Of a stretch of 64,000 bases of DNA, positions 47,637 to 50,405 are shown piece by piece. The translations under genes and the position numbers were made by a program. Below the pieces are notes generated by a model. It saw only the letters and a program-made list of their open reading frames with translations. It was not told where the DNA came from and searched no databases. Position 1 is the stretch's first letter, and each line of letters begins with the position of its first letter. This stretch comes from Spirochaetia bacterium (GTDB taxonomy: Bacteria > Spirochaetota > Spirochaetia > UBA9216): NCBI GenBank assembly GCA_963677925.2, contig CAXXYH010000004.1, positions 1,632,001 through 1,696,000 of the forward strand, written 5' to 3'.

Positions 47637-48704
47637 CTATTTACTTCTGAAAGCTATGGAATGCAGATTGTTGATAGTCTGTGCGGTTGATGATCTGCTT
47701 CCGGCGTCTACATCAAGTATGTTGAAGTAACGTTCTGTTCCGGAATTGTTATCTATGCCCCAGAAAAATCCGGTCAGAGGGTTGAATTTTCCATGATGAG
47801 CATAAACATGGGTAGTATCTGTTGTTATCTTTTTGACAAATGTTCCAGCACCGGTGGAAGTGTTGATGCTGTATACATCTACAGCATCGAGTGATTCATC
47901 TTCCTGTTCCGGGTTAATCAGATATAGATTGCCGCTGCTGTCAAAATCCATACCATGTGTCCATGTTGAAACTCCGGATGATTCAAATTCTGTTATTTCG
48001 GCGGTTGACGGGTTTACGGTAACCAGTACATCTGTATTTTCACTCCAGGCGTAAAGTGTTCCTGAGGAGCTGAATGCCGGATTAAGAAAACCGGCTTCTA
48101 CAATTCCGGAAGAGCCTATTTCCGTTACGGCTGCTGTGGATGTATTTATTTCAACTAGTCCGGAAGAGAGTGTTGTATCATTAGTTGATGTAGTTCCATA
48201 CAGTTTTCCGTTATCATTATCATACACCAGACCGTTAAGGTAGTAGCCGGTATCACCAATTTCGGCAAGCTGTTCGCCTGTTTCTGAATCAATTTCATAA
48301 AGGATGCTTGTTCCCAGGCTGCTGTTTCCTTTGCTGGCTCCATATAAAATGGGCAGTACCGTAACGCTCGCCGATGCAGAGAAAGAATCGTCAGTAGTTG
48401 ATACTGTTATTTCAGCGGTTCCTGCACCAACCGCTGTTGCGGTTCCGTCATCGCTGATGGTAACGATGCTTTCATCAGAAGTGGCCCATATGAGGCTTAT
48501 CTCTGAAGCTGCCTCAGGCTCAACTGTTGCTGCGAGCTGAGCTGTAGATGTAAGTTTAACTGTCAGCTCAGTATCATTCAGTGACAGGTTTGTTACTGTT
48601 ATACCGCTGTTTGCTGTAGTGATTCCGTCACAGCTGTAAAATGCGAATACAGTAATGGCAAGTACTATCAGAAAAGCTTTAAGTTTAAATTTTTTTTGTT
48701 TCAT
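47637..48704 (-). CDS. Surface lipoprotein with Big_2 Ig-like domain and probable beta-propeller
   Basis: FYS|C lipobox; QLAATVEP.A....WATSDESIVTI..DG..TAVGAGTAEITV; repeated LYEID..TG / LVEIN..TA / GMDFDSSGNLY units. Confidence 0.8.
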   Translation of the reverse strand: MKQKKFKLKAFLIVLAITVFAFYSCDGITTANSGITVTNLSLNDTELTVKLTSTAQLAATVEPEAASEISLIWATSDESIVTISDDGTATAVGAGTAEITVSTTDDSFSASASVTVLPILYGASKGNSSLGTSILYEIDSETGEQLAEIGDTGYYLNGLVYDNDNGKLYGTTSTNDTTLSSGLVEINTSTAAVTEIGSSGIVEAGFLNPAFSSSGTLYAWSENTDVLVTVNPSTAEITEFESSGVSTWTHGMDFDSSGNLYLINPEQEDESLDAVDVYSINTSTGAGTFVKKITTDTTHVYAHHGKFNPLTGFFWGIDNNSGTERYFNILDVDAGSRSSTAQTINNLHSIAFRSK

Positions 48705-48860
48705 ATAATAATCCTTATAAAATTAAATCCTGACAAATTTACTCAGGTTAAAAGCGATTGTCAATTTTATTAGTTCGGTTTCGCAGAAAATCTATGATTT
48801 TGTGCCGGGATAATAATCGCAGAATATCTCAGGGATGATATTTGCAGAATATCATCCCCC

Positions 48861-48889
48861 TTGACATAAACACTGACTGACGGTACATT
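48861..48889 (+). promoter_or_regulatory. sigma70 promoter whose +1 falls on the leader-peptide AUG
   Basis: TTGACA(48861-66)-17-TACATT(48884-89), then 6 nt, then ATG 48896. Confidence 0.8.
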
Positions 48890-48895
48890 TTCAAT

Positions 48896-48973
48896 ATGTT
48901 GGAATCAATCTTAAACAAGAAATTATCCGCCGCGGCCGCAGCTACTTTGACTGCGGTGTTGAACTGGTTCTGA
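48896..48973 (+). CDS. Putative alanine-rich attenuator leader peptide MLESILNKKLSAAAAATLTAVLNWF (25 aa, not in the ORF track)
   Basis: GCC GCG GCC GCA GCT at 48929-48943; lies between the promoter and a terminator that precedes the aminotransferase. Confidence 0.78.
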   Translation: MLESILNKKLSAAAAATLTAVLNWF

Positions 48974-49032
48974 CATATTTCGCCGCAGTCTTTTAAAAAA
49001 GGCTCGCGGTCCGGTTAATATTGAAGCTGACG

Positions 49033-49065
49033 GCAGAGTCTTTTTACAGACTCTGCTTTTTTTTT
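49033..49065 (+). terminator. Attenuator terminator in the aminotransferase leader
   Basis: GCAGAGTCT(49033-41)/AGACTCTGC(49048-56) + T9, ending 38 nt before the ATG at 49104. Confidence 0.88.
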
Positions 49066-49103
49066 GCAGAGGCGATTACAAAATCCGGTGGAGTGGAGTT
49101 GAA

Positions 49104-50405
49104 ATGAGAAGAGCGATAGTACATGAAGGTGCAAGGCAGCTGACTTATGAGATCAGGCAGATCGTATCGGTTGCCAACGAGATTAAGGAGCTCGGCAGGG
49201 AAATAAGCTGGGAGAACATCGGAGATCCGGTTGAAAAGGGAAACAACATCGAACCCTGGATGAAAGAGATTATTTCAAATCTGACGGCTTCAGACGCCAG
49301 TTACGGTTATACAGACAGTCAGGGGAATCTGCAGACAAGGAAATTTCTGGCCGGTGAATGCAACGCAATCGGCGGAGCACATATCAGCCATGACGATGTA
49401 ATTTTTTTCAACGGTCTTGGAGATGCTGTTGCAAAGATTTTCGGATTTCTGAAACGGGAGGCAAGGGTAATTGGTCCATCTCCCGCCTACTCAACACACT
49501 CATCAGCCGAAGCCGCCCATTCAGGCTATGAGCATCTGACATACAAACTCGACCCTGATAACAACTGGCTGCCCGATATCGAGGATTTGAGGAACAAGGT
49601 AAAATACAATGACTCAATTGCCGGAATCCTGCTTATTAATCCCGATAACCCCACGGGTATTGTATATTCAAGGGAACTTCTAAGTGAAATAGTACAGATA
49701 GCTGCAGATTACAATCTGTTTATTATTGCCGATGAAACCTACAGCAGGGTTGTTTTTCCAGATGTAGATTTCAGCTATATATGCGAGGTTATCGGGAATG
49801 TACCTGCTGTTTCGATGAAAAGCGTAAGCAAGGAATACCCCTGGCCGGGAGCAAGATGCGGCTGGATCGAAGTGTATAACCGCAAAAAAGACCCGGAATT
49901 TGATACATATATCTCAAGTCTTATAAACGCCAAGCGTCTGGAGGTCTGCTCAACAACTCTGCCTCAGCTTTCAATCCCGCTGATTATGGGAGATCCGAGG
50001 TATCCTGAACACATCCGTACCCAGTCTGAAATGCTGGCTTCAAGAGCCGAGGAAGCCTATATCAATATGAAGGATATTACGGGCATTCAGGTTCTTAAAC
50101 CACAGGGGGCTCTCTATTTTACAGTCCTTTTTAAAGATGGTGTTTTGAATGACGGGCAGTTTCTTGAGATTTCTGAACCTGGTATCAAAAACTATGTTGA
50201 AGAGAAGGTTAAAGGCCTTGAACTTGATAAACGTTTTGTTTACTACCTTCTCGGTGCTGCAGGTATATGTGTAGTCCCGCTTACAGGATTCTGCTCGCAA
50301 CTCAAGGGGTTCAGATTCACACTGCTTGAAGCTGATGATCAGAAACGAAGGAACATTTATAAAACACTTGGTGAATCAATACAGGCCTATCTAGGAAGTA
50401 ACTGA
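49104..50405 (+). CDS. PLP-dependent aminotransferase class I/II, AlaA (alanine transaminase)-like
   Basis: LTYEIR..V, ENIGDP, YGYTDSQG, INPDNPTG.VY, ADETY, SVSKEYPWPGARCGW, PQGALY; the N-terminus resembles the AlaA YDIRG..NIGNP pattern. Confidence 0.8.
   Translation: MRRAIVHEGARQLTYEIRQIVSVANEIKELGREISWENIGDPVEKGNNIEPWMKEIISNLTASDASYGYTDSQGNLQTRKFLAGECNAIGGAHISHDDVIFFNGLGDAVAKIFGFLKREARVIGPSPAYSTHSSAEAAHSGYEHLTYKLDPDNNWLPDIEDLRNKVKYNDSIAGILLINPDNPTGIVYSRELLSEIVQIAADYNLFIIADETYSRVVFPDVDFSYICEVIGNVPAVSMKSVSKEYPWPGARCGWIEVYNRKKDPEFDTYISSLINAKRLEVCSTTLPQLSIPLIMGDPRYPEHIRTQSEMLASRAEEAYINMKDITGIQVLKPQGALYFTVLFKDGVLNDGQFLEISEPGIKNYVEEKVKGLELDKRFVYYLLGAAGICVVPLTGFCSQLKGFRFTLLEADDQKRRNIYKTLGESIQAYLGSN

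Follow-up and report, generated by a model that had tools for sequence, protein, structure and literature searches.

A probable alanine-codon leader-peptide attenuator ahead of a PRK06855-family aminotransferase gene in Spirochaetia

We analyzed a stretch of 64,000 nucleotides (nt) from a Spirochaetia bacterium (GenBank assembly GCA_963677925.2, contig CAXXYH010000004.1, positions 1,632,001 to 1,696,000 of the forward strand), referred to here as the window, in which a candidate alanine-sensing transcription attenuator precedes an aminotransferase gene. Positions are counted from the first letter of the window, and the features described lie on the plus strand unless stated otherwise. The best promoter-like site of the region is of the sigma-70 type (48861..48889) and consists of TTGACA (48861-66), a 17-nt spacer and TACATT (48884-89), with 10 of 12 consensus matches. 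The ATG of a leader open reading frame (ORF) is located at 48896, 6 nt past the -10 hexamer, which would thus place the transcription start on or adjoining this ATG. The ORF comprises 25 codons (MLESILNKKLSAAAAATLTAVLNWF; 48896..48973) and ends with a TGA at 48971-73. Its codons 12-16 are an uninterrupted run of five alanine codons, GCC GCG GCC GCA GCT (48929..48943), which we term S0 and which represent the proposed stall sites, and a sixth alanine codon (GCG) is found at 48953. Five further segments follow S0. These are S1 (GACTGCGGTG, 48949..48958), which lies within the leader ORF and forms 10 base pairs (bp) with S2; S2 (CGCCGCAGTC, 48981..48990), which can pair with S1 or, alternatively, with S3; S3 (AAGGCTCGCGGTCC, 48999..49012), the 5' strand of a predicted antiterminator, which can be sequestered by S0 or S2; S4 (49029..49042), the 3' strand of the antiterminator, made up of the 5' arm of the terminator (49032-41) together with the 3 nt upstream of it and the first nucleotide of the loop; and S5 (49048..49057), the 3' arm of the terminator and partner of S4. 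The intrinsic terminator itself (49032..49065) has a 10-bp stem, the closing G-U pair included, a 6-nt loop and a run of nine T residues (T9), with its hairpin (49032-57) at -15.1 kcal/mol.

The aminotransferase gene (49104..50405), which encodes a protein of 433 amino acids, is preceded by the Shine-Dalgarno (SD) region GGAGTGGAG (49090..49098), located 5 nt ahead of the ATG. The T-run and this ATG are separated by 38 nt, the SD region included, and these 38 nt contain no promoter-like site, so that there is no space for a separate promoter. The 5' leader as a whole folds better than 200 of 200 shuffled versions (z = -2.9), in a genome with a G+C content of 42.7% in which alanine accounts for 7.6% of the codons. 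A search of positions 48500-49400 against Rfam returned nothing relevant at E values up to 10, and at the 11 other leader loci that were searched there was no match at the gathering score to His_leader, Trp_leader, Leu_leader, Thr_leader or other models. A first-pass annotation made from this DNA had placed the promoter, the ATG, the ORF, its alanine codons, segments 1 and 2 (our S1 and S2), the terminator and the gene, and every one of its coordinates was confirmed.

The gene product is a pyridoxal phosphate (PLP)-dependent aminotransferase of class I/II, which scores 657 bits over residues 1-432 against the NCBIfam equivalog model PRK06855 (NF005334; cut-off 443). This enzyme family is widespread and is named in NCBIfam only as 'PLP-dependent aminotransferase', although the structure nearest to the window enzyme is that of Escherichia coli AlaA (4cvq, E = 3e-42), followed by 1xi9, an entry deposited as a putative transaminase and which we take to be the alanine aminotransferase of Pyrococcus. 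Several sources call close homologs alanine transaminase, with names that are assigned automatically. The enzyme would presumably make alanine from pyruvate. The genome holds approximately 20 other class I/II aminotransferase-like genes. Among 14 control genomes, a PRK06855-family member above the cut-off was found only in Methanocaldococcus jannaschii.

The leader is conserved along with the gene. A protein search of 61 related genomes identified an orthologue in 21, of which one locus lacks its 5' end, leaving 20 leaders that could be assessed. All 20 have a short upstream ORF with 3-7 consecutive GCN (alanine) codons followed by a GC-rich hairpin, all 20 have a TTGAC-type promoter with an ATG approximately 35 nt further on, and a T-run of at least five follows the hairpin in 19 of them, the exception being locus L020. 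Together with further loci of the Spirochaetia type they make up the 31 leaders analyzed below, in 27 of which a hairpin and then at least five T residues lie ahead of the gene. The device remains with the aminotransferase gene across at least 12 families of the class. Of 11 genomes in the family of the window, eight contain the S1...S2 motif, each in a single copy, and it is found only where the aminotransferase gene is present. Two individual leaders may be mentioned here. Locus L010 (genome G046) has two tandem intrinsic terminators approximately 20-90 nt upstream of the gene, and its leader ORF ends right after seven alanine codons, while at L019 (genome G005) the orthologous aminotransferase gene contains one in-frame TAG, yet the alanine leader and the terminator are intact.

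The limits of this distribution are also evident. Of 401 genomes of the phylum scanned with the PRK06855 family model, 103 contain the gene. In 30 loci examined from that scan, all from family f50, which is probably Leptospiraceae, the leader is absent and the gene closely trails another ORF. Another 20 loci from other families include three with a leader, namely L067 and L068 from the class of the window and L069 from family f84, and the remaining 17 (families f44, f58, f74, f70, f64, and f50) have none. In a scan of 80 loci with one genome per species, the leader is present in nine of the 13 loci that are labeled as spirochaete and do not belong to Leptospira; one of the other four is cut by a contig end and three (L106, L123, and L144) lack a leader. 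In a FastTree phylogeny of 185 distinct enzymes, those of the Spirochaetia type form a single clade of 34 rows (support 83), and by inspection 31 of the 34 have a leader, those without being L106, L123, and L173.

A search for a second alanine leader in the genome of the window, as would be expected of a regulon, gave no convincing candidate among those inspected. The whole genome contains 51 short ATG-started ORFs with at least four consecutive GCN codons, eight of which have a run of six T residues (T6) within 200 nt. Inspection of four of the seven T6-associated matches other than the window leader placed three inside apparent longer coding sequences, and the fourth (contig C4, minus strand, 774449) is followed by approximately 640 nt without a gene on the same strand. 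A 15-codon frame with eight consecutive alanine codons near position 429668 of contig C3 (plus strand) seems to be embedded in a longer membrane-protein coding region that is read in another frame, and it was rejected as a leader on account of this apparent overlap.

Evidence that the leader ORF is translated must come from features that are independent of how the loci were picked, since they were chosen by their GCN run and the G and C of its codons are therefore uninformative. For 28 of the 31 leaders, the 150 nt preceding the run contain a TTGAC and, 30-44 nt after this motif, an ATG, the spacing between the two being 35-37 nt in nearly all. Of the 31 promoter-proximal ATGs of this kind (30-44 nt past TTGAC), 29 share the frame of the alanine run, against a chance expectation of one third. 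Thirty leaders have sufficient sequence upstream of the ATG to look for a -10-like hexamer, and in 29 of these it ends 5-9 nt ahead of the ATG, leaving no space for an SD sequence. All 31 leaders have an ORF of 18-36 codons with a run of 3-7 alanine codons that begins at codon 11-19, and the peptide ahead of the run is not conserved. We regard these features as good, if indirect, evidence for leaderless translation of the ORF, falling short of proof.

The run itself behaves differently from the RNA downstream of it. The first-pass annotation had proposed aligning upstream regions in search of a conserved alanine run with synonymous variation, and this is what we find, as the run is present in all 31 leaders in 24 distinct nucleotide versions, with three or four of the synonyms used in 25 of the 31. 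The later segments hardly vary at all among the nine leaders of the window family. Here GACTGCGG (S1) is invariant in nine of nine, S2 (CCGCAGTC) is nearly letter-for-letter constant, and S3 is nearly constant as G[AG]CT[CT]G[CT]GG, with GACTCGCGG in five of the nine. Hence the run, which varies at third positions, behaves like codons, and the later segments, which are nearly constant, behave like RNA.

The segments of the window can form a chain of overlapping helices. S1:S2 has 10 bp and -17.7 kcal/mol, S2:S3 has -14.8 kcal/mol, and the alanine run takes part as well, through S0:S1 (-14.5 kcal/mol) and through S0:S3, a duplex of -20.8 kcal/mol that is part of the unconstrained minimum free energy (MFE) structure. 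Among upstream stretches, S3 (48999-49012) makes the best match to the terminator 5' arm, and its pairing with 49029-42 gives an antiterminator with a duplex energy of -15.7 kcal/mol and a hairpin (48999-49042) of -16.8 kcal/mol, compared with -15.1 kcal/mol for the terminator. The same chain, S0:S1, S1:S2, S2:S3, S3:S4, and S4:S5, is present in all nine leaders of the window family, with each helix between -9.8 and -21.5 kcal/mol, and in this family the best partner of the terminator arm is located 25-52 nt beyond the leader stop codon. The region 48981-49002 of the window, in which the S1:S2 hairpin is followed by UCUUUUAAAAAA, resembles a possible polymerase pause site, and we may speculate that this hairpin and the UCUUUU serve as a pause that synchronizes the polymerase and the ribosome on a leaderless transcript.

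To follow the switch we folded the nascent window transcript to the end of S4 with ribosome masks at set positions. Without a ribosome the MFE structure has S0:S3 around S1:S2 and S4 is essentially free. With the ribosomal A site on alanine codon 1, 2, or 3 it consists of S1:S2 and the S3:S4 antiterminator hairpin; with the A site on alanine codon 5, where S1 is masked, S2:S3 forms and S4 is free; and with the ribosome at the stop codon S0 is partly paired with S3, S4 again being free. The antiterminator hairpin is thus found in the nascent MFE structure only with the A site on alanine codons 1-3. The earlier annotation had assumed that a ribosome stalled on the alanine codons masks segment 1 and thereby allows the antiterminator to form, and the folds give the opposite, as masking of segment 1 leads to S2:S3 with the terminator arm free, while the productive stall leaves segment 1 available to segment 2. 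It had also assigned the antiterminator to segment 2 and 49026-34. This pairing exists, but it has 8 bp with a bulge at -11.2 kcal/mol, shares no more than 3 nt with the terminator stem and occurs in no masked MFE structure, and we rejected it as the antiterminator.

A similar contrast runs through the nascent folds of most of the 31 leaders. Pairing of the terminator 5' arm is higher for a ribosome on alanine codons 1-3 than for one at the stop codon in 28 of them, by at least 0.2 in 20, and the mean paired fraction of the arm is 0.81 on alanine codons 1-3, 0.55 at the stop codon, and 0.61 without a ribosome. Most of the other Spirochaetia leaders (L010-L019, L067, and L068) have the four-segment design of the trp type. 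The strand that pairs with their terminator arm lies between -29 and +20 with respect to the stop codon and begins 7-27 nt after the first alanine codon, so that it is hidden by a ribosome at the stop codon. A ribosome on the first alanine codons leaves it exposed in all of these leaders but L016, in which the extended duplex begins only 7 nt after the first alanine codon.

We propose that the leader attenuates transcription by the ribosome-mediated, leader-peptide route, with the supply of charged tRNA-Ala as its signal and a single aminotransferase gene as its target, and we consider this reading probable. The parts of such a device, their conservation and their position-dependent folds are established in silico. 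Transcription would begin at or adjoining the ATG at 48896, and the 25-codon ORF would be translated from a leaderless mRNA, which would require the sensing ribosome of this spirochaete form to load at the very 5' end of the RNA. When Ala-tRNA is scarce, the A site would wait on one of the first three alanine codons with S0 covered, S1:S2 would form, and the free S3 would take S4 once it is made, holding the 5' arm of the terminator so that the polymerase enters the aminotransferase gene. When Ala-tRNA is plentiful, the ribosome would continue, melt S1:S2 and arrive at the stop codon, whereupon S2 or the vacated alanine run would capture S3, S4 would be free and the S4:S5 terminator would end transcription at the T9 run. 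If the leader is not translated, S0:S3 would enclose S1:S2 and transcription would terminate again. The core idea of the first-pass annotation, namely a leaderless alanine-codon sensor ORF that drives the choice between terminator and antiterminator ahead of an AlaA-like aminotransferase gene, has strong comparative support.

Similar leaders precede the same enzyme family outside the spirochaetes. Our automatic detector, which requires at least four GCN codons and an open frame of no more than 70 codons, overlooked leaders at L015, L016, L020, L095, L128, and L166 that were later found by eye, and its counts (at least 14 leaders in 80 genome loci, at least 16 in 80 metagenome loci, and at least 38 in the 185 loci of the tree) are therefore lower bounds. 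The non-spirochaete leaders are alanine-rich ORFs with terminators in Desulfuromonadales and Desulfobacteraceae lineages, at genome loci L134, L138, L139, L145, L146, L124, L130, and L143 and at metagenome loci L175, L177, L187, L212, L217, and L228. These ORFs differ in sequence from those of Spirochaetia (for example, MINTAAAAARAF... and ...SAAAAAAGRLVV...), as do their RNA segments, and several are located behind a GGAG-type SD motif. In the Desulfuromonadales-type leaders L134, L139, L145, L175, L177, L187, and L212 the partner of the terminator arm again falls within the last seven codons of the ORF. At L130 and L143 the best partner of the 5' arm of the detected terminator is in a first hairpin, 30-56 nt past the stop codon, and these two look like tandem terminators. 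In the enzyme tree the Desulfuromonadales and Desulfobacteraceae proteins are far from the spirochaete clade, with many leader-less clades in between, so that either two origins or many losses are needed, and the differing modes of initiation favor two origins. We lean, if only slightly, toward the view that cis-acting 'Ala-leader' attenuators of at least two origins, leaderless in Spirochaetia and SD-started in Desulfuromonadales and Desulfobacteraceae, control alanine supply ahead of PRK06855-family genes.

A number of results weigh against the attenuator proposal and need to be set beside the evidence for it. The 31 leaders are related to each other, and their counts therefore overstate independent support. 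The canonical T-run is missing in four of the 31 (L020, L069, L092, and L095), which could work differently. More generally, the sub-types represented by L069 and L159-L161 (with leader peptides ending in ...APPDVC), by L092, and by L095 have a hairpin without a canonical T-run, and attenuation in these may use a different mechanism, for instance Rho or translational control. The contrast in the nascent folds is modest and fails in three of the 31 leaders (L004, L009, and L020). Covariation, which had been put forward as a check on the stems, is almost nil in the window family, where a single two-sided change was found, in a pair of S1:S2; the MAFFT alignment used for this misplaces S2 in two rows and the stems scarcely vary. 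The antiterminator duplex compared with shuffled upstream sequence gives z values from +0.4 to -5.0, which are above -1.5 in nine of 23 leaders. In equilibrium folds of the full leader without a ribosome, 22 of 23 leaders have a terminator probability of 0.78 or more, and masking the alanine run brings it below 0.5 in only four of the 23 (L003, L019, L067, and L068). Folding with ribosome masks, as the first-pass annotation had suggested, is thus consistent with a switch in the nascent transcript but shows none in the full leader at equilibrium. Since the terminator wins at equilibrium, the switch would have to be a kinetic one, in which the antiterminator forms first and persists, and we infer both this kinetic choice and the response to alanine. 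On the side of the enzyme, the curated alanine-aminotransferase model PRK08363 gives only 157 bits against its cut-off of 534. The earlier description of the protein as AlaA-like therefore has to be read as denoting a distant relative of AlaA. An alanine dehydrogenase that scores above the TIGR00518 cut-off is encoded in the genome as well (contig C4:159842-160939, minus strand) and could provide another link between alanine and pyruvate, so that the aminotransferase need not be the sole source of alanine.

Three other explanations of the leader have to be considered. It might report on translation in general, responding to any slowing of the ribosome by antibiotics, starvation, or uncoupling, with the GCN run present for its pairing ability, as GCCGCGGC is self-complementary. 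The run is indeed a pairing strand in the window, through the S0:S3 and S0:S1 helices described above, words of the CCGCGG type recur in the run, the mid segments, and the terminators of many leaders, and the upstream ORF (uORF) of mycobacterial whiB7 is reported to react to many stresses (PMC10274678). Yet the run varies freely at its third positions, with 24 versions among 31 leaders, and several runs contain no CCGCGG at all, such as the GCA GCA GCA GCC GCT of L067, L068, and L131. Moreover, unrelated leaders ahead of genes of this enzyme family, with other pairing strands, again have a frame-locked run of a single amino acid, and the nearest solved relative of the regulated gene product is an alanine aminotransferase. 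We consider such a general sensor unlikely.

If the leader were instead an RNA switch that is not translated, or a binding site for a protein, so that a ligand, a tRNA, or an RNA-binding protein is recognized and the ORF is incidental, the nucleotide-level conservation of S1, S2, and S3 would be explained, and leaderless initiation, which is an assumption of our proposal, would not be needed. Such a leader would leave unexplained that 29 of 31 promoter-proximal ATGs share the reading frame of the run, that the stop codon keeps its place with respect to the antiterminator strand, and that several deltaproteobacterial ORFs use a GGAG-type motif instead of a leaderless start; nor is there a large conserved aptamer-like core or a match in the Rfam searches of the window (E up to 10) and the 11 other loci (gathering threshold). 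This makes it an improbable account. Least probable in our estimation is a chance juxtaposition, in which an independent small transcript, that is a small ORF (sORF) or small RNA with a terminator of its own, lies beside a separately regulated aminotransferase gene. A strong terminator always forms at equilibrium, so that most conditions would yield mainly a short terminated RNA, as this account would have it, but the 38 nt from the T-run to the ATG have no promoter-like site, the arrangement has been kept with the gene across at least 12 families of the class, and the S1...S2 motif is single in each genome and present only where the gene is. An attenuator that reads charged tRNA-Ala remains our preferred reading of the locus. 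Elsewhere in the same intergenic region there is a divergent promoter-like site on the minus strand (TTGACA, 17-nt spacer, TAAATT; 48736-48764) that faces a gene for a protein of 355 amino acids (47637-48704, minus strand), and with the leader promoter this gives two back-to-back promoters.

By analogy, the device would extend a known mechanism, classical leader-peptide attenuation, with a layout nearest to that of hisL in the window and to that of trpL in relatives of the window. The hisL attenuator has a short ORF with a run of cognate codons and six overlapping segments that form two exclusive sets of helices, with the terminator last; stalling within the run directs folding into the antiterminating set, and termination also occurs without translation. 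The window resembles hisL of E. coli and Salmonella in its codon-run ORF, in its chain of six segments with the terminator as the final helix, and in the predicted termination without translation. It differs in that the amino acid is alanine, that a single aminotransferase gene is controlled rather than a pathway operon, that the ORF is leaderless without an SD sequence, that the lineage is Spirochaetia, and that the codon run also pairs with the distant S3, and there is no similarity in sequence or in Rfam. The simpler Spirochaetia leaders share with trpL the 1:2 / 2:3 / 3:4 logic and an antiterminator strand that overlaps the stop codon. In classical attenuators the choice between terminator and antiterminator is a kinetic one, and as in trpL the terminator here is the more stable helix, so that the choice would likewise be kinetic. 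Unlike trpL, the window has six segments, a leaderless mRNA, another amino acid, and another lineage. Classical attenuation is known for Trp, His, Leu, Thr, Ile/Val, and Phe and also for Cys in actinobacteria, while alanine synthesis is generally viewed as being under the control of protein regulators.

The nearest precedent for alanine is the 'Ala leader' of mycobacterial whiB7. This is an alanine-enriched uORF in which stalling favors an antiterminator over a Rho-independent terminator and raises WhiB7, which in turn activates the alanine aminotransferase gene aspC (PMC10274678; 10.1101/2025.10.10.681568). The statement of the first-pass annotation that it knew of no characterized poly-Ala attenuator for alanine biosynthesis therefore has to be amended, since this alanine-tuned uORF attenuator has been characterized (PMC10274678). 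The two systems have in common an alanine-enriched uORF, a stall that leads to antitermination and, as the outcome, more alanine aminotransferase, which for the window device is a prediction (PMC10274678 for whiB7). In contrast to the window device, whiB7 acts through a transcription factor and not in cis on the enzyme gene, and its uORF is longer and of mixed composition, senses other amino acids and antibiotics, has no uninterrupted alanine run at a fixed position, and belongs to Actinobacteria (PMC10274678). The gene downstream of the window leader encodes an aminotransferase and not a WhiB-family regulator, unlike a leader of the whiB7 type. Leaderless sensing also has a mycobacterial counterpart in polycysteine sORFs, which control genes of cysteine metabolism through ribosome pausing (10.1101/834739). 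They are similar to the window in having a leaderless sensor ORF, a codon run for a single amino acid, and cognate metabolism genes, but they act on translation, with the stalled ribosome blocking a structure that hides the downstream ribosome-binding site (10.1101/834739), whereas the window has an intrinsic terminator. In the open-access literature of PubMed Central and bioRxiv we found no description of a cis-acting alanine-run attenuator of an alanine aminotransferase.

If our proposal is correct, a conserved cis-acting alanine attenuator would add alanine, and the spirochaetes, to classical attenuation, and it would represent a compact natural case in which a leaderless sensor ORF is coupled to an intrinsic terminator. 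It would also provide a testable label, that of an alanine-forming transaminase, for a widespread enzyme family that has so far carried only a generic name. The separate appearance of such leaders in Thermodesulfobacteriota suggests selection for exactly such a solution and, if the extension to these lineages is also correct, the PRK06855 family would be the main alanine-synthesizing transaminase of these phyla.

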